Shown in pieces: positions 3,186 through 14,467 of a stretch of 64,000 bases of DNA. The stretch comes from a virus. The position numbers and the translations under genes were made by a program. The notes under the pieces are model-generated. The model was not told where the DNA came from and did not search any database. It worked only from the letters and a program-made list of their open reading frames with translations. The stretch covers positions 1-64,000 of IMG/VR virus record IMGVR_UViG_3300010033_000001. One strand, given 5' to 3'. The number at the start of each line of letters is the position of its first letter. Positions within the stretch are counted from its first letter, which is position 1.

Positions 3186-3494
3186 CTAATTCTTATTTTC
3201 AAGTTTCTGAAGGTTTTCCTTTAAATACTTAATCAGAATTTCACCTTGTTCAATATCGGCATCAAGTATATTAATACTGTGCTCAAGCTGCCTGCTATGC
3301 CTTTTGGCAAGGTCATTTGCCAGATGCTCACGCTGTGCCTTCATTTGATTGAGCTCAAAGGTCGCCTCACCGAGCTCGGTCTTAATTGTGTCGATTGTCA
3401 TACTTTGTTTGTCATTTATGGTTACCTTCAATACCTCATCGAATGTGGCGTTGATTTTGAATTTCTCATTGTATCGATTCTTTCTTTTAGTCAT
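3186..3494 (-). CDS. coiled-coil protein
   Basis: 102-aa ORF whose ATG overlaps the transposase stop by 8 nt. Heptad-like, Glu/Lys/Leu-rich. Confidence 0.5.
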   Translation of the reverse strand: MTKRKNRYNEKFKINATFDEVLKVTINDKQSMTIDTIKTELGEATFELNQMKAQREHLANDLAKRHSRQLEHSINILDADIEQGEILIKYLKENLQKLENKN

Positions 3495-4452
3495 ACCTCA
3501 TGTTTGTTAATTCATCATAGCTTAAAGGCGCCTCACTGCTTTCCAGGAACTTATGCATCCTTTCTGATGCACTCATAGCCCGGGCATTGAAAACGGCAGC
3601 AAACGCATTCAAATACCTGTGCAAATGCTTTTCGCTTATCTGGTGGTGAACACCGTATATGGAACGTTTAAAGAGACTCCAAAAATTTTCTATGCTATTA
3701 GTGTGTACCTGGCCATCGACATACTTCGAAAGGCGGTGCAATATGGTGGCATGGTTGTACCTCTTGTTCAGGTCCATGTATGACTTATTCTCATCGGTGT
3801 ATATGGTGGCACCTGCCGGTACTTTCTGATTAATGAATTCCAAGAGGTGCTTTTTCTTACCGCTGGGCATGTACCTTAAAACGATTTGACCGGATCGCTC
3901 CATGATACCCATGAGCATTTTTTTAGGCTTGTAGGGTGTGCCATCATTTCTAAAATTACCGTTGTTCGGGTCACGCTTGCGGCCAAAGTGTTTGTTCTTC
4001 TCCTTTCCATCAATCCAAGCTTCATCAACCTCAATGGGTCCGGAGCAATCCAAGAACTCAGGTTGTTGCTCCTTAAGCATTTCGCGGATTCGGTGCATCA
4101 TGAACCAGGCTGTTTTCTGTGTGATGCCTAGCAATTCAGCCAGGTAGGGACTAGTGACGCTTTTCTTACTTGTGGTTAGGATATAGATCGCCCCGAACCA
4201 TATTCTCAATGGCTTCTTAGTATTCTGAAAAATAGTTCCGACCAACACCGTGAATTTTTTCCTGCAGTCTTTGTTACTGCACTTATAACCACGATTCGTT
4301 TTGTAGGGCTTTTCACTTTGGCAATGCGGGCACCTGGGCTTGCCGTTCCATCTAATTTGTTCGTAGTACTCGATTGCCGTTTTTTCATCACGGAAATAAT
4401 CGAGCAAATGAGGTAGGGATTTGAAATTCATGTCGTAAATAATCGTTGTCAC
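3487..4452 (-). CDS. IS1595-family (ISXO2-like) DDE transposase
   Basis: N-terminal zinc ribbon (CPHCQS...CSNKDC), an HTH region, then an ISXO2-like core (EVDEAWIDGK...IYTDENKSY...HTNSIENFWS). Confidence 0.8.
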   Translation of the reverse strand: MTTIIYDMNFKSLPHLLDYFRDEKTAIEYYEQIRWNGKPRCPHCQSEKPYKTNRGYKCSNKDCRKKFTVLVGTIFQNTKKPLRIWFGAIYILTTSKKSVTSPYLAELLGITQKTAWFMMHRIREMLKEQQPEFLDCSGPIEVDEAWIDGKEKNKHFGRKRDPNNGNFRNDGTPYKPKKMLMGIMERSGQIVLRYMPSGKKKHLLEFINQKVPAGATIYTDENKSYMDLNKRYNHATILHRLSKYVDGQVHTNSIENFWSLFKRSIYGVHHQISEKHLHRYLNAFAAVFNARAMSASERMHKFLESSEAPLSYDELTNMRYD

Positions 4453-6186: not shown

Positions 6187-6269
6187 TATCCAGTGATGAA
6201 AGCCGTATAGACACCAGTTTAGAAAGCTGGCGCTCGCAAAGCATGTCGGTTCGAATCCCATCTGGACTA
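6187..6269 (+). tRNA. degenerate class II tRNA-like element or tRNA fragment (anticodon position reads AGA)
   Basis: Good anticodon arm CCAGT-TTAGAAA-GCTGG, a variable-arm hairpin GCT-CGCAA-AGC and a T loop TTCGAAT. The T stem has a C-C mismatch, the acceptor has only 5 bp and no D stem could be drawn. Confidence 0.3.
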
Positions 6270-6278
6270 CTATTTATT

Positions 6279-6364
6279 GGCGCAGTGGCGAAATCGGTAA
6301 ACGCATCAGATTTTGACTCTGATATCCGTCCCAGGATTTGTCGGTTCGAATCCGACCTGCGCTT
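6279..6364 (+). tRNA. class II tRNA (long variable arm, Leu-like D arm) with anticodon UUG (Gln by anticodon)
   Basis: Acceptor GGCGCAG/CTGCGCT (G1-U72 wobble), U8, D stem GCG/CGC with loop AAATCGGTAAA. Anticodon stem TCAGA/TCTGA with loop TTTTGAC (anticodon 6313-6315). 17-nt variable arm with an ATCC/GGAT stem. T arm GTCGG-TTCGAAT-CCGAC. Confidence 0.7.
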
Positions 6365-6373
6365 CTATTTATC

Positions 6374-6444
6374 AGTGCCGTGTCCGAGTGGCCAGGTAAT
6401 GTGGTTGCCCCCCATTTACACCGGTTCGAATCCGGTCGGCACTT
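6374..6444 (+). tRNA. 71-nt tRNA-like gene, anticodon ambiguous (GCC or UGC)
   Basis: Perfect acceptor AGTGCCG/CGGCACT and T arm ACCGG-TTCGAAT-CCGGT. Ser/Tyr-like D loop GAGTGGCCA, but the D and anticodon stems are weak. Confidence 0.5.
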
Positions 6445-6475
6445 CAAAGATAGGCTTTTAGGCCTATCAAGTATT

Positions 6476-6553
6476 GGGGGAGTAGCTCAACCCGGATAGA
6501 GCGTCTGACTTAAAATCAGAAAGTTGCGGGATCGTACCCCGTCTCCTCCACCA
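6476..6553 (+). tRNA. class I tRNA with anticodon UAA (Leu by anticodon), 3' CCA encoded
   Basis: Acceptor GGGGGAG/CTCCTCC (one G-U), D arm GCTC-AACCCGGATA-GAGC, anticodon arm TCTGA-CTTAAAA-TCAGA (anticodon 6511-6513). 5-nt variable loop, T arm GCGGG-ATCGTAC-CCCGT, then A-CCA. Confidence 0.8.
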
Positions 6554-6623
6554 ATTTTATAAGGGCTTAATTGCCCTTTTTTCTTTTAAGGCATCATGAT
6601 GCCGTTGTTACAAACTTATCTAT

Positions 6624-6649
6624 AGTTGCCGAAAAAAGGCAACTTTTAT
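6624..6649 (+). terminator. Rho-independent terminator closing the tRNA array
   Basis: Perfect 7-bp stem AGTTGCC/GGCAACT with loop GAAAAAA, followed by TTTTAT. The stem reuses the GGCAAC core of the cassette inverted repeats. Confidence 0.65.
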
Positions 6650-6680
6650 CAAAATATTTTTAAGAGGTTAAAAATAAACC

Positions 6681-6706
6681 TTGTCCCACTTTGTATATAG
6701 TTGCCA
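6681..6706 (-). repeat. right 26-bp terminal inverted repeat
   Basis: TTGTCCCACTTTGTATATAGTTGCCA is the exact reverse complement of 1716..1741. Confidence 0.95.
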
Positions 6707-6735
6707 GTGCCTTATAACCACCGAGATAAAGGTAC

Positions 6736-6766
6736 AAAAAAAACCAGCCGATTCAGAATCGACTGG
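6736..6766 (-). terminator. Rho-independent terminator after the terminase operon
   Basis: 10-bp stem (9/10 paired) CCAGTCGATT/AATCGGCTGG followed on the minus strand by T8. Confidence 0.7.
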
Positions 6767-6846
6767 CCAATAAACACACACATTTTAAAAACGTTAGGAT
6801 AACCCAACACATGAAGATAAACATATTTTTAACAAGTACAAAATAA

Positions 6847-8526
6847 TTACCGCAAAATGTACGGCGCTATCGTTGATTGTCCAAGCTTGCGATTCTTACG
6901 CACCCAATTCCAATATACTGCTGCATCGAATATATTAGGTGACTTACCGCCCAAACGCTTTTTGATTTGATCCTTAGACTCGATTTTGATCATCTTGTCT
7001 GATATGCTGTACTTCACCAATGTACACTGCTTGACAAATTCCTGAAGCGTTCTAGGATCAGCGATATCGACAATGAAATCACGATGCATAAGATCCAGAC
7101 GGAATTGAAACATCATTTGCGCCCTGAGTGATGCAAAGGTGTATTTGGGGTTACCCTCGCGATCAACGGGTATACAGTCCATATCAGGACCACCTTGCAA
7201 ACCGATCACACTATAGTTCAATCTTGCAAATTCGTTAATGGTACCAACACCAACACCAACTGCATCGACTCCTACGGATTGATGATCAACACCCTGATGC
7301 TTTAACTTCCAAGTATGATAAATCGGAATACCGTGTTGCCTCAGGTGCTCATCATCATTCACCAGATTATCAGCCAGGGCATTTGCGTTTGGACATTGGA
7401 ATTCATTGATGCGAGTCATCACATTACGCTTACCCCACACCAAACAGGCCTTATCACCAGCCTCAGAGTTGGCCACGTCAACACCTAGTGCATTATTGCA
7501 ATCTACTATGTGCTTATTAGTGCCGTCATCGTTCAGTTCATTCTGATCGAGGATGTTATGATCATATTCCTTACGCTGAGTACAGCAAGCTACTATCCAT
7601 TCATGCATGATCAGCGAGTCACTGGATTGTGCCGGTGCAATACCTCGAGCTCGAGACTTAAAGAAGGGTGAATCTTCTCCATATTCCTCACGCCGTTCAT
7701 CAATCGACTGAATGGTAACAGCCCCGGGAATGATTTCTTTTTTGTTGACTACGTTAGGGTGATCATAGCCTGATATGATGATGTGGTGAGTATTAGGACG
7801 CTCACAAAACAGGTGTAATGCATCGGTTTGAGAATCAGGGTTACCAATGGCACATATGACATTGTTTTCACCTGTACAAGTGTTCACAATGGCTTTCACT
7901 ACTGCGGGTGATATCCCGGCAGTTTCTTCGAGTAAGAAAAGCATATTTTTGGCATGGTATCCCTGCATCTTTGTGGCTGACTCCTCATCGGCACCGACTC
8001 CGGAAACCACACCGATCATTTGGTGCGCGTCGTTACCTTCCTCATCCATGTGTTTGTTCAACCTCATACGTCCATCCGGAAGTATTCGTAAGCTGTACAG
8101 CTGGGCACGGTTGTTCATTTTCCTGAACTTTTTAAAGCCCTTGGCCACTTCTTTCCATAGAATAGTTTTGAGTTGTGTAAGCTTTGGAGCTGTGGCTATC
8201 ACTATTGAGTCCTCATATACATCCAAGAACCAATAGGCAAGGCGGGCCACCATGTAAGTCTTGCCGGTGCCCGTGGCTGACTCAATGCCAACGTTCTGTT
8301 TATTGGCTAAGGCCTTGCATGCTTCCAAGAATGGGTTCACTGTTCCATCCCATTGGTGATTTTCATATCCGCCATGTACTGTCCAGTCCAGTGAGCCGAT
8401 CGGTTCCTTAAACTTTTCTATCATCCACTTATCGGGATATCGCTGGTAATACTTTCTTTCAACTACTTTGTGTAATTGTTCCAGCATTTGCCGCCTTGTA
8501 ACGTGCGGATGATTTGTGACTGTCAT
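6847..8526 (-). CDS. terL: terminase large subunit
   Basis: Walker A GIESATGTGKTY, Walker B-like MLFLLEE, C-terminal nuclease-sized domain. ATGA overlap with the upstream small-terminase candidate. Confidence 0.8.
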   Translation of the reverse strand: MTVTNHPHVTRRQMLEQLHKVVERKYYQRYPDKWMIEKFKEPIGSLDWTVHGGYENHQWDGTVNPFLEACKALANKQNVGIESATGTGKTYMVARLAYWFLDVYEDSIVIATAPKLTQLKTILWKEVAKGFKKFRKMNNRAQLYSLRILPDGRMRLNKHMDEEGNDAHQMIGVVSGVGADEESATKMQGYHAKNMLFLLEETAGISPAVVKAIVNTCTGENNVICAIGNPDSQTDALHLFCERPNTHHIIISGYDHPNVVNKKEIIPGAVTIQSIDERREEYGEDSPFFKSRARGIAPAQSSDSLIMHEWIVACCTQRKEYDHNILDQNELNDDGTNKHIVDCNNALGVDVANSEAGDKACLVWGKRNVMTRINEFQCPNANALADNLVNDDEHLRQHGIPIYHTWKLKHQGVDHQSVGVDAVGVGVGTINEFARLNYSVIGLQGGPDMDCIPVDREGNPKYTFASLRAQMMFQFRLDLMHRDFIVDIADPRTLQEFVKQCTLVKYSISDKMIKIESKDQIKKRLGGKSPNIFDAAVYWNWVRKNRKLGQSTIAPYILR

Positions 8527-9534: not shown

Positions 9535-9744
9535 TTATTTCTCAATTGTTGGGTTCTTCAATTGATCAAGATATCGGTTCTTTTTGGCAATCTTACGGTT
9601 TAATGCTTCGATCTTGATTTGTGTTTGTACCAAATCACCTTTTAGGCTTCTTAACTGACGACCGTAATGTCCAAGATCGTTTGTGCACAGTAAGATTTTT
9701 TCGTTGATCTCCTCTTGGGTTAATTGCTTTTTATCTCTTTGCAT
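9535..9744 (-). CDS. small coiled-coil protein
   Basis: 69-aa ORF, heptad-like. Confidence 0.4.
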   Translation of the reverse strand: MQRDKKQLTQEEINEKILLCTNDLGHYGRQLRSLKGDLVQTQIKIEALNRKIAKKNRYLDQLKNPTIEK

Positions 9745-9996
9745 AACGGTTTTTTTTAAGCCCGTCTTTCCAGGCTGTCAGTCTTTGAACACCTTAAGCC
9801 ATACAATGGGCAGACTCTAAGTCTGCGAGAGGAAGCCATAATCAGATGTCCCAATGCCTAAGATGAACCCGACAAGGTTCGCCTCATTTTATCCTCTCAA
9901 ATAGTTCTTTTCAACCAATGCTTTAGGCTACTCGCTCACGGTCGTATCTGTGAAATCCGAATAGTTCAGGTGTGGGCTTTCACCTAAAGCTGATTG

Positions 9997-10078
9997 TGGC
10001 GATGGCAGGAATCGAACCTACAACCTTACGGACTCCGCAAGTGCATGAGCGGGGCTAACCAATATCCCCATCATCGCT
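9997..10078 (-). ncRNA. tRNA-like element with canonical acceptor, D and T arms but no anticodon loop
   Basis: The minus strand reads AGCGATG-AT-GGGG-ATATTGGTTAG-CCCC ... GTAGG-TTCGATT-CCTGC-CATCGCC-A. The anticodon position is a closed hairpin CTC(A)TGC-ACTT-GCGGAG followed by CC-GTAA-GG. Confidence 0.45.
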
Positions 10079-10092
10079 TCTTTAAATAAGTT

Positions 10093-10322
10093 AGGAAATA
10101 AACAGGATTCGATACCTGTAACCGTTCATGACCGGATATTTCGTCTTCTACTAGAATTACCTATCCGTTACATGGCGCTCTGTACAAAGCACCAATGTTC
10201 ACTATAGACCCTCCTGCCCTCGCAGGTGTGCAGTATTACACCAAATCACCAACTAATATGCGTTACTTATCACAAGCTGCATGGGTTAGTCCCCACCGCT
10301 ACGCGCTTCCGCCACTATTCCC
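10093..10322 (-). ncRNA. candidate ~230-nt structured RNA closed by a tRNA-type acceptor stem with G3-U70
   Basis: 5' GGGAATA pairs 7/7 with 3' TATTTCC (G3-U70 wobble). Leu-like D-arm string GTGGCGGAA at the 5' end and a T-arm-like ACAGG-TATCGAAT-CCTGT at the 3' end. Internal hairpins GGTGT/ACACC, CCTGC-GAGG-GCAGG and GGTGCT-(T)TGTACA(G)-AGCGCC (6 bp; 7 bp if the adjacent T-G wobble is counted). Confidence 0.3.
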
Positions 10323-10381
10323 TATTGATTAAGTCAATTTTCCAGGTCACGTCTTGATCCTGGTCAGTAGCCAAAGACAGG

Positions 10382-11176
10382 TTACCCTAATCCTTGGCTA
10401 TTTTCGGTTTTTAATTCTCGCATGCTTAACTGTTTAGGTTCCTGTTTCTTTACCTGTGCAGGGTTGAATAACTGACCCTGTTTGATATGGTTCTTTAACC
10501 TTTCGACCCCTGCTTTATAGTAGTCTTCATCAATCTCCCATAGGTCCAGATCAAAGCCTAAATCATAACATGCTATTGCTATGCTCATAGAGCCTCCATG
10601 AGTGTCTAGAATCCTATCCCCAGGTTTGGCATAGTTCTGTAATAGCCACTTGTAAAGGGCTACAGGTTTTTGTGTGGGATGAATGCGCTTATCAATACCA
10701 GTGTTATCCCAATTAATTTTTCCCCCTTGCTTGTTACCGCTCCATTTATATCTAAAAACTGTGATTCTTTTTTGAAGTGAGCAGCTCGCTAAGTCACCAT
10801 GAGAGAAGTTAATTTTGGTTCCTTAAAAATCAGTTTCCTTGTCATGAAATATTCTACCTTTGGATGTGATATAACTCGCATAGTAATTACAACCCCAGAT
10901 GATTTGGTTTTCAGTCACTAAATGAAGTGATTTAAAATAGTTCTCTTTAGGAATAGAGTCATTCCAATCCTTGTTTTTATGTATTGATGGGTACTTTTTA
11001 CCGTTAGCTTGAGGAAAGTTTTTACCCGCGGCACCACTTCCATTAATCATATCAAGACCAATTCCATACGGAGGATCCACAATGGCCAAATGGTAGGACT
11101 TCTCTTTCATGGATTTCATAGCTTTCATACAATCCCCATGATACAGGTTAATATTTGGTGTCTTGCTTACGTTCAT
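10382..11176 (-). pseudogene. DNA methyltransferase (N6_N4 type, DPPY...HPTQKP...GGS) interrupted by an in-frame TAA at 10823-10825
   Basis: ORFs 10823..11176 and 10382..10588 share one frame. Hand translation across the gap is continuous: ...HDKETDF*GTKINFSHGDLASCSLQKRITVFRYKWSGNKQGGKINWDNTGIDKRIHPTQKPVALYKWLLQNYAKPGDRILDTHGGSMS... Confidence 0.75.
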
Positions 11177-13736: not shown

Positions 13737-14183
13737 TTAAGAGGTTCCTTTGATAAGCTTCTCGAGATCTACAGTCGATATATCTTTGAGCATTTCGTAA
13801 TGCTCAGCCCCTAGCTTTTTGATACGCTCAACATATTCCAAGGCGCTTTTCTCATATTGTTTGATCCTATTAAGTAACTTCTCTTTGGTAGCATCCTTAA
13901 GGTCAATCTTATTGAGATATCCAACCACACTCTGATCAAGTGATGAGAATACAAAGCAACTGAGTGGTTCCAGGTAATAGCAATTACTAGTCCTAAACAA
14001 CACACCACTACTGTCATTGATAACAAAAACCTCACGTTTATCGATCTTTTTCAGGGTAATGCTCATGATTTTAGTTTCGATGATTTCAACCTTGTCCTGG
14101 TAATCAATATCAATCTTATAATACACATCCCCGGGGCTGACAGTCGATCCGATTTTAACGGGTATAAGTTTAGCCTCACTCAT
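13737..14183 (-). CDS. hypothetical protein
   Basis: ORF 13737..14219. The Met at 14183 gives an ATGA overlap with the upstream stop. Confidence 0.5.
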   Translation of the reverse strand: MSEAKLIPVKIGSTVSPGDVYYKIDIDYQDKVEIIETKIMSITLKKIDKREVFVINDSSGVLFRTSNCYYLEPLSCFVFSSLDQSVVGYLNKIDLKDATKEKLLNRIKQYEKSALEYVERIKKLGAEHYEMLKDISTVDLEKLIKGTS

Positions 14184-14467
14184 AATTCTATCACCCCCCT
14201 TCCCTGACATGCCGGGCATGAAATCACATTCAAGCTTACCCCATCGTATTTAACTCCGGTACCATTGCAATGGCTACATATTGCTTTGCGTTTCGGTTTT
14301 CGTTCCGGGTCAGCGAATCCTACACGGTATGCCAGGTTACATCTTTGGCGGCACATTGCGCCCGGTTGATGACATGGGCCATCCTCGAAAATCTGGCAGT
14401 CATGCATTTTACTGTTTGTTGTCGCCATGGCATCGGCCAAGGCTGCAAGCTCTTTTGTTCTTCCCAT
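14180..14467 (-). CDS. DnaJ-type zinc-finger mini-protein
   Basis: Two CxxCxGxG motifs (CSHCNGTG, CPACQGRG) plus additional Cys residues. Confidence 0.6.
   Translation of the reverse strand: MGRTKELAALADAMATTNSKMHDCQIFEDGPCHQPGAMCRQRCNLAYRVGFADPERKPKRKAICSHCNGTGVKYDGVSLNVISCPACQGRGVIEL

Follow-up and report, generated by a model that had tools for sequence, protein, structure and literature searches.

The 64,000-nucleotide stretch of viral DNA analyzed here (the window; positions 1 to 64,000 of IMG/VR record IMGVR_UViG_3300010033_000001) belongs to a phage contig of 70,226 bp, whose large terminase (TerL) is 59% identical to its best match among 5.8 billion proteins. On the minus strand, within a gap free of open reading frames (ORFs) between a DNA methyltransferase gene and the genes leading to the terminase, lies an element shaped like a tRNA (Table 1). 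Read from 10078 to 9997, its sequence is AGCGATG-AT-GGGG-ATATTGGTTAG-CCCC-G-CTCATGCACTTGCGGAG-TCCGTAAGGTT-GTAGG-TTCGATT-CCTGC-CATCGCC-A. The element is derived from a tRNA, belongs to a family of phage tRNAs and has no anticodon that it could display. A broken or retired tRNA is more likely here than a purpose-built mimic, and we give slightly less than an even chance to the specific reading that the element is a recently inactivated ex-tRNA without a new role.

Table 1. The tRNA-shaped element, its parts and its surroundings, in window coordinates.
Feature	Position	Strand	Details
Whole tRNA-shaped element	9997..10078	-	82 nt; CCA not encoded; trailer CAATC
Acceptor stem, 5' strand AGCGATG	10072..10078	-	A1 opposite C72, then 6 pairs; covaries with homologs (GUUGAUG, GGCGUUG, ACCGAUG)
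D arm GGGG-ATATTGGTTAG-CCCC	10051..10069	-	4-bp stem, 11-nt loop; A14, G18 and G19 present
Anticodon-arm equivalent CTCATGCACTTGCGGAG (17 nt)	10033..10049	-	Canonical register: 3 pairs, then A.G and U.C mismatches; loop GCACUUG (C33, U37)
Alternative pairing inside anticodon-arm equivalent	10033..10049	-	CTC(A)TGC-ACTT-GCGGAG hairpin
Competing helix CUUGCGG-AGU-CCGUAAG (7 bp)	10025..10041	-	Takes up 3' half of anticodon arm and variable hairpin; minimum-free-energy state
Variable arm TCCGTAAGGTT, short, class-II-like	10022..10032	-	CC-GUAA-GG hairpin; 11/11 identical to L265
T arm GTAGG-TTCGATT-CCTGC	10005..10021	-	5-bp stem; 17/17 identical to L265 and L091a; RNA GUAGG-UUCGAUU-CCUGC
Acceptor stem, 3' strand CATCGCC	9998..10004	-	Discriminator A = 9997
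ORF-free gap holding the element	9745..10381	-	637 nt; flanking genes all on the minus strand
Upstream hairpin ACAGG-TATCGAAT-CCTGT, then T-rich run	10094..10143	-	Closed by GAAATA/TATTTC; terminator-like or decayed T arm
N6_N4 DNA methyltransferase	10382-11176	-	Upstream neighbor in the direction of transcription, along with a ParB-like gene
Downstream genes	large terminase 8526-6847	-	69-aa ORF, 276-aa ORF, large terminase
IS1595-family transposase (DDE_Tnp_IS1595 and zinc ribbon)	3487-4452	-	Between tRNA cluster and contig end

The acceptor stem spans the usual seven positions, with six Watson-Crick pairs and A1.C72, and is followed by a discriminator A. The D arm (GGGG-AUAUUGGUUAG-CCCC in RNA letters) carries the G18 G19 signature and the T arm that of T54-Psi55-C56 and A58; position 8 is A instead of U. 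The middle of the molecule lacks the 5-bp stem and 7-nt loop with U33 and a purine at 37 that define an anticodon arm, and the loop is closed in both low-energy folds. An earlier reading of this DNA from its letters (hereafter the sequence-only reading) had described the acceptor stem, the D and T arms, a CTC(A)TGC-ACTT-GCGGAG hairpin and a CC-GTAA-GG mini-hairpin, all of which are present base for base. It was also right that the RNA would keep the acceptor, the D/T elbow and the T arm without a usable anticodon loop. Such an RNA almost certainly cannot read a codon.

At default settings, ARAGORN makes no call on the element; its three tRNA calls in the window all fall at 6279-6553 on the plus strand. 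Rfam returns no match at the element at gathering thresholds. At E <= 10, the best clan match is tmRNA with 10.9 bits (E = 0.034) over the T arm and the 3' acceptor strand, so the tRNA model (RF00005) scores below 10.9 bits against a threshold of 29. A canonical cloverleaf that the sequence-only reading could have missed is found neither by ARAGORN at default settings nor by the Rfam tRNA model. Its stronger statement, that no 7-nt loop with U33 could be drawn, is too strict: with lowered thresholds ARAGORN draws a tRNA-Arg(GCG) with the loop UUGCGGA. That fold is nonetheless poor: it contains a C.C mismatch, and either its acceptor stem has to shift or 5 nt have to link the D and anticodon arms. 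We set its anticodon arm aside because it is out of register with the homologs described below. An intron-containing tRNA was also considered and dropped, as ARAGORN run with introns gives nothing credible.

Folded as a single strand (-31.2 kcal/mol, z = -2.2), the element retains all three of its acceptor, D and T helices. The middle of this fold consists of CUUGCGG-AGU-CCGUAAG and a small GC-UCAU-GC hairpin, and so differs from the hairpin of the sequence-only reading. When the energies are calculated explicitly, the CUUGCGG-AGU-CCGUAAG fold reaches -30.3 kcal/mol and the fold with the earlier hairpin -25.8 kcal/mol; the canonical register with three stem pairs has -21.6 and the arm from relaxed ARAGORN (UGCAC-UUGCGGA-GUCCG) -17.1 kcal/mol. 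Pair probabilities in the CUUGCGG-AGU-CCGUAAG helix are at least 0.96 under the nearest-neighbor model, and no low-energy state of the element offers a 7-nt loop. Folding thus agrees with the earlier reading that the anticodon arm is closed, but prefers a different way of closing it.

The tRNA shape and the closed arm fare differently against chance. We scanned for a T arm of five pairs (loop T-T/G-N-R-A-N-N) with an immediately adjoining 3' strand of 7 nt that can pair with one 60-112 nt upstream. This yields 17 matches, the element included, in 1.23 Mb of window and related phage loci, compared with 0-2 in eight shuffles. The tRNA shape of the element is beyond chance. The 17-mer arm alone folds at -3.5 kcal/mol, a stability equaled by 622 of 5000 shuffles (12%); with the body fixed and the arm alone shuffled, 48 of 600 sequences (8%) reach the observed total energy. 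Since neither fold is more stable than shuffled arms, selection for sealed hairpins is unsupported. The sealing is a consequence of two lost stem pairs in an arm rich in G+C and is not demonstrably a designed feature.

Exact and gapped patterns derived from the element match nothing in IMG/VR, in the JGI metagenomes or in 185,579 GTDB species genomes. Homologs were found after the pattern had been reduced to the variable arm and the T arm. The family comprises the window element, L265/L266 and L268 (both from JGI metagenome contigs) and L091a (from an IMG/VR contig), as aligned in Table 2. A D-arm pattern search returned 119 loci, among which L091 alone is real. BLAST against INPHARED phages and PLSDB plasmids gives T-arm matches only, the terminase-based relatives (8 Logan/JGI and 80 IMG/VR loci, 88 contigs) hold no copy of the family, and two pattern scans of the 185,579 species genomes did not find the family body in cellular genomes. 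The homologs sit in unrelated phage contigs, and no window protein has a homolog on the L265/L266, L091 or L268 loci.

Table 2. Alignment of the four family members, in RNA letters.
Member	Acceptor	8-9	D arm	26	Anticodon arm	Variable arm	T arm	Acceptor	73
Window	AGCGAUG	AU	GGGG-AUAUUGGUUAG-CCCC	G	CUCAU-GCACUUG-CGGAG	UCCGUAAGGUU	GUAGG-UUCGAUU-CCUGC	CAUCGCC	A
L265	GUUGAUG	AG	GCGG-AUAUUGGUUAG-CCGC	G	CUGGU-CUCAAUA-GCCAG	UCCGUAAGGUU	GUAGG-UUCGAUU-CCUGC	CAUCGAU	U
L091a	GGCGUUG	AU	GGGG-AUGGAGGAUUAG-CCCC	A	CUGGC-ACUCUUU-GCCAG	CCCGUAAGGUC	GUAGG-UUCGAUU-CCUGC	CAACGCU	A
L268	ACCGAUG	AU	GGGA-GUUGGUUA-UCCC	G	UGUUA-UCGCCUU-UGAUA	CAUCCGUAAGGUC	GUAGG-UUCGAAU-CCUGC	CAUCGGU	A

The family body is class-II-like, with an 11-nt D loop and a variable arm of 11-13 nt that forms the CC-GUAA-GG hairpin. 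The window element has all of its hallmarks: the D loop, the CCGUAAGG variable hairpin and the GUAGGUUCGAWUCCUGC T arm. Relative to L265, the D loop (11/11), variable hairpin (11/11) and T arm (17/17) together are identical at 39/39 positions, and CCGTAAGG in the variable arm is invariant in all four members. A family covariance model (R2) trained on the window element, L265 and L091a gives the untrained L268 61.7 bits, compared with 15-38 bits for other tRNAs in the 1.23 Mb; the window element, itself in the training set, scores 100.8 bits. Cloverleaf cells are paired at 94.5%, against 28-50% with slid partners, in a comparison of only four sequences whose alignment was fitted to the model. 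Six pairs are changed on both sides among the four members, including 2-71, 5-68 and 11-24. Covariation is seen in the acceptor stem, the D stem (where L265 compensates pair 11-24) and the outer anticodon stem, and we regard it, given four sequences and a fitted alignment, as supportive and not decisive.

ARAGORN calls the other three members tRNA-Leu(CAA) (L265), tRNA-Arg(UCU) (L091a) and tRNA-Gly(GCC) (L268), each with an open 7-nt loop on a 5-bp stem. The Rfam tRNA model passes L265 (33.2 bits), fails L091a (23.2 bits) and gives no match to L268 at E <= 1. All four members have U37, three have C33, and the 1-72 pair is weak throughout (G.U, G.U, A-U, A.C). The L265 copy adjoins tRNA-Ala and tRNA-Phe genes and the L268 copy a tRNA-Trp gene, and these neighbors all have U33 and A37. 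Judged by alignment and covariance scores, the window element belongs, as a derived member, to a genuine family of phage tRNA genes. The family is unusual and previously uncatalogued, and standard finders miss or mislabel its members. As to conservation in relatives, on which the sequence-only reading had made itself depend, the answer is divided: the tRNA body is conserved in other phages and the sealed arm is not.

In the family register, the anticodon arm corresponds to the 17 nt from 10049 to 10033. The hairpin of the sequence-only reading is therefore the homologous arm with its pairing slipped (after a bulged A come U.G, G-C and C-G; loop ACUU). The outer three pairs are kept, with pair 29-41 compensated (C-G in the window element, G-C in L265 and L091a). 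Pairs 30-40 and 31-39 are lost (A30.G40 and U31.C39), and positions 34-36 read ACU. The loop GCACUUG shares C33, C35 and U37 with L091a and L268. An open 7-nt loop on a 5-bp stem is thus found in L265, L091a and L268 but not in the window element, and the competing CUUGCGG-AGU-CCGUAAG helix is not present in the homologs. Two substitutions (G40U and C39A, or A30C and U31G) restore pairs 30-40 and 31-39, after which ARAGORN at default settings calls a tRNA-Ser(ACU); no single substitution in the element yields a clean call.

These features suggest how a tRNA could have been put out of use. A copy of a phage tRNA gene with the class-II-like body would have lost the two anticodon-stem pairs nearest the loop (A30.G40, U31.C39), and the freed bases would have paired anew, forming CUC(A)UGC-ACUU-GCGGAG or, together with the variable arm, CUUGCGG-AGU-CCGUAAG. 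Positions 34-36 (ACU) would therefore no longer be shown in a 7-nt loop. RNase P, RNase Z and the CCA-adding enzyme read the stack of acceptor and T arm and the elbow. Because both are intact, the RNA, if transcribed, would be expected from tRNA biochemistry to be cut by RNase P and RNase Z and given CCA. It might also be charged by a synthetase that ignores the anticodon; given A73 and the class-II-like body, LeuRS and SerRS are the sole plausible candidates. Codon pairing on the ribosome would not be possible without a 7-nt loop.

The adjoining methyltransferase gene is a single frame interrupted by one TAA at 10825-10823, at a position occupied by Glu in four of five full-length homologs (64-70% identity). 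By this alignment, the stop looks like a fresh single GAA->TAA change in an otherwise intact gene, or like a read-through site. Stop-codon recoding was rejected: there is no tRNA with a UUA anticodon, one gene only is affected, and the stop aligns with Glu. About 20 nt separate the end of the terminator-like hairpin and its T run from the element, and ~85 nt past the element there is a promoter-like site; features of both kinds occur at chance frequency. An apparent mini 'tRNA' in the same upstream segment (10143-10094) has a fold z-score of -0.23 and is not significant. Upstream segments complementary to the D and T regions (repeats I9 and I10) are in the wrong order for a duplex and match at chance level. 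The window holds no other copy of the arm, which removes a diversity-generating retroelement template or a duplicated arm from consideration. No gene for Ro, RNA ligase, CCA enzyme, reverse transcriptase, integrase or a defense-related partner occurs among the 29 ORFs scanned. Within the terminase clade of this phage, tRNA genes are repeatedly found directly upstream of the terminase gene and on its strand (L023, L043, L065, L074, L075, L078).

The three tRNAs called at 6279-6553 have mismatched bodies and anticodons. In the 'tRNA-Gln(UUG)', a class-II body is combined with a variable arm of 17 nt and U73; the 'tRNA-Leu(UAA)' has a class-I body with CCA encoded, and the 'tRNA-Gly(GCC)' a 3-nt variable loop and a score below the Rfam threshold. 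A fourth tRNA of this cluster may have left a remnant just upstream of the tRNA-Gln: at ~6246-6262 on the plus strand there is a degenerate T arm (GTCGG-TTCGAAT-CCCAT), with CTGGA after it.

Further tRNA-shaped elements occur in other phage contigs. L024, with a terminase 46% identical and a methyltransferase 42% identical over its C-terminal half, mirrors the layout of the window, in which the element lies ~300 nt downstream of the methyltransferase gene. It carries two elements that ARAGORN does not call (14129-14217 and 14309-14397), ~100 and ~290 nt downstream of the homologous methyltransferase. Both have perfect 7-bp acceptor stems; one has a UUUCCC-CGGA-GGGAAA hairpin resembling a long variable arm, and in the other a 5-bp stem closed by the triloop UUA takes the place of the anticodon arm. 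One of the two (L024x) can be aligned with the window element over 66 nt, starting in the variable arm and reaching the 3' trailer, at 67% identity (E = 1e-4, although the search space was tiny). Its position is syntenic, and its score with the R2 model is 23 bits, as for any tRNA. Three further methyltransferase neighborhoods contain no tRNA-like element. In another phage-like contig (L273), a Thg1-family gene (6550-7218; tRNA-His guanylyltransferase-like, a 3'-5' polymerase) lies 900 nt downstream of the homologous methyltransferase.

Uncalled tRNA-shaped genes are also present in L008 (13883-13952 and 14093-14293), L017 (13861->13761), L091 (955->806; L091b) and L268 (8966->8848; L268b). 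Their acceptor and T arms are intact, as are often their D arms, and their middles range from a closed pentaloop hairpin (70 nt in total) to those of RNAs of 101-201 nt; L091b measures 150 nt, L268b 119 nt and the largest, in L008, 201 nt. None has an Rfam family match. Smaller still are minihelices of 47-56 nt in L099/L116, in L120, L126, L130 and L132, and in L133, which have nothing but a T arm joined to an acceptor stem by a short linker. The L120 group and L133 have CTACGGTACTAAGGTGCAGGTTCGACTCCTGCC in common, with acceptor stems that differ and are fully compensated. A different arrangement is seen in L102, L117, L125, L134 and L141, where an identical 3' portion of a tRNA-Met, beginning at the anticodon stem and running through to the 3' end, is joined to unrelated AT-rich sequence, as compared with L096 and L121. 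These junctions look like prophage attachment-site junctions.

Several lines of evidence support the reading of the element as an ex-tRNA recently put out of action. The homologs share the body and have open loops, and the element is two substitutions away from a callable cloverleaf. The closed folds are unremarkable and the closed state is unique to the window copy. The adjoining methyltransferase carries a fresh nonsense mutation, and an IS1595 transposase lies nearby. Pseudo-tRNAs are, moreover, the common case. The suggestion of the sequence-only reading that this architecture is typical of a purpose-built mimic, such as a Y-RNA module, a primer or a decoy, is not supported, given that the other family members have open loops, that the element is two substitutions from a cloverleaf and that the hairpins do not exceed chance.

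Weighing against inactivation is where the sequence has changed. Between the window element and L265, the arm differs at 11 of 17 positions and the rest at 9 of 65 (Fisher p = 7e-5), unlike uniform decay; the comparison with L091a gives 9/17 and 10/65 (Fisher p = 0.003), and that between L265 and L091a 7/17, almost all in the loop, and 15/65 (Fisher p = 0.2). In addition to the complete identity with L265 over the conserved parts of the body, three acceptor pairs and one D-stem pair have changed with compensation. Odd loops (C33, C35, U37) stand on intact bodies in three of the four members, next to Ala, Phe and Trp tRNAs that are canonical. An independent parallel is provided by orthologous class-II tRNAs in L074 (5488-5569), L075 (2028-2109) and L078 (3011-3092), ~1.6 kb upstream of the terminase and on its strand. 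Those of L074 and L075 are regular tRNA-Leu(UAA), and the L078 loop, UACGACA, lacks U33; L074 and L078 differ at 8/17 positions in the arm and 2/65 in the body (p = 2e-5). In these alignments, change concentrated in the arm of a conserved phage tRNA body is thus seen twice. It fits either a body under selection with a free arm or a recent lesion together with a last working ancestor that already bore a different arm. Phage genomes usually delete dead DNA fast, and this phage has no close relative (59% TerL match at best).

The same pattern of change is what a retained, non-decoding tRNA-shaped RNA would leave behind, and this explanation we consider a serious rival, though less likely than not. 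Here the body would be selected, through a host or phage factor that reads the acceptor, elbow and variable arm, and the anticodon arm would be free or closed on purpose. Such an RNA might compete with or act as a decoy for defense nucleases cutting the anticodon arm, might mark the start of the packaging operon for processing by RNase P/Z, or might form a tRNA-like module within a longer regulatory RNA. Besides the conserved body sequence and covarying acceptor stem, it would account for the non-canonical loops on perfect bodies in three of four family members, for the L078 parallel, and for the uncalled elements that combine perfect acceptor and T arms with aberrant or enlarged middles (L008, L017, L024, L091b, L268b and the 47-56-nt minihelices). 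Two of these lie downstream of the homologous methyltransferase in L024, as in the window, and phages seldom keep junk. Defense tRNases that attack the anticodon arm are widespread (PMC10264068, PMC13056530, PMC12445682), and a pseudo-tRNA in a non-translational role is documented (PMC3399842). On the other hand, the sealed hairpins are no more stable than chance and the sealed state occurs in no homolog; L024x scores like any tRNA with the family model and its orthology is unproven, and the three further methyltransferase neighborhoods lack such an element. If the element were a decoy for an anticodon nuclease, one would expect it to retain the loop of the target, and no partner gene (Ro, RNA ligase, CCA enzyme, reverse transcriptase) was found among the ORFs scanned.

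That the element still decodes in an unorthodox way seems improbable. It would read AGU as a tRNA(ACU) with two tolerated mismatches and C33/U37, or CGY through the arm UGCAC-UUGCGGA-GUCCG (anticodon GCG, U33, G37). The 17-nt arm has the canonical length, relaxed ARAGORN does return the tRNA-Arg(GCG), and the C33, C35 and U37 of GCACUUG recur in L091a and L268, both of which ARAGORN calls at default settings. Relative to the minimum-free-energy fold, however, the canonical register is worse by 8.7 kcal/mol and the Arg(GCG) fold by 13.2 kcal/mol; the Arg fold also carries the mismatch and the displaced acceptor or linker noted above and is out of register with all homologs, and the Rfam tRNA score is below 10.9 bits. 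C33 and a pyrimidine at 37 run contrary to nearly all known decoders. We see hardly any chance that the element is a tRNA-like domain of tmRNA, a Y-RNA-like module or an attachment site (attP) carrying part of a host tRNA. The weak Rfam match to tmRNA (10.9 bits, E = 0.034) compares with a threshold of 47 bits, the ARAGORN tmRNA search is negative, and neither a tag reading frame nor pseudoknots are present; C3-G70 in place of G3.U70, a total of 82 nt and a true D stem also speak against this domain. The Y-RNA-like domain proposed by the sequence-only reading does not survive a test of YrlA features: Rfam gives no such match in 9700-10400 at gathering threshold or E <= 10, no TROVE/Ro protein is found among the scanned ORFs, and the element ends at its acceptor stem, whereas the tRNA-like domain of a Y RNA is internal to the Ro-binding stem. 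An attP site, finally, carries only the 3' part of a host tRNA. Both halves are present here in a full-length gene with its own complementary 5' half, the body matches nothing in the 185,579 species genomes, and no integrase is found among the scanned ORFs.

Comparison with known systems places the element closest to ordinary phage tRNA genes, including those annotated as 'pseudo' or undetermined, with which it shares the cloverleaf body and homologs in phage tRNA clusters. It differs from them in having no open anticodon loop, an 11-nt class-II-like variable hairpin, U37, C33 in three of four members and a weak 1-72 pair. For re-use of such a body, the nearest documented analogue would be tRNA-Other of Bacillus cereus, a pseudo-tRNA that serves as the tRNA-like element of a larger regulatory RNA and sets a precedent for exaptation (PMC3399842). 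Both are tRNA-derived and have kept the tRNA shape, tRNA-Other itself standing outside translation. tRNA-Other is, however, chromosomal, with experimental phenotypes and longer transcripts that have been mapped. Phage tRNAs have been proposed to mutate their anticodon loops and so escape host anticodon nucleases (PMC10264068), and defense enzymes that cleave inside the anticodon stem or take off the entire arm are now known (PMC13056530, PMC12445682). The loop-mutated phage tRNAs show the same focus of change, the anticodon stem-loop of a conserved body, but they keep a 7-nt loop and decode, which the window element cannot do. The tRNA-like domain of tmRNA likewise combines an acceptor and a T arm with another helix in place of the anticodon arm; the element, in contrast, lacks G3.U70, an mRNA-like part and pseudoknots, and has a true D stem. 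In mascRNA/MALAT1-type processing signals, and in engineered tRNA scaffolds whose anticodon arm gives way to a cargo, a tRNA body that does not decode confers stability and offers a handle to RNase P, RNase Z and the CCA enzyme. The larger relatives L091b, L268b and L008 have this appearance. Still, mascRNA is eukaryotic and tRNA scaffolds are artificial, and the window element would carry a 'cargo' of no more than a 17-nt hairpin.

A wider and undescribed phage habit, in which a conserved tRNA body is used as a handle and the anticodon arm as a free cassette, is in our view unlikely. The cassette would range from the closed hairpin with a 4-nt loop in the window element, through the scrambled loops of L078, L091a and L268, to inserts of 50-125 nt in L268b, L091b and L008. 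The products would be stable, non-decoding RNAs processed by RNase P/Z, in effect natural 'tRNA scaffolds' that could act as competitors of defense nucleases directed at the anticodon arm or carry small regulatory RNAs. If the element is only a dead tRNA, its importance is small; it then documents a phage tRNA family that finders miss and a genome with two fresh, adjacent gene losses. The family-wide pattern of a conserved body and a free anticodon arm is the part that most deserves follow-up. If the body is truly selected and the arm free, the pattern would point to non-decoding uses of phage tRNA genes, for example as scaffolds, handles for processing or decoys. Cleavage of tRNAs is now coming into view as a major antiphage strategy and, if such uses are real, the 'pseudo-tRNAs' of phages would deserve systematic study rather than being discarded.

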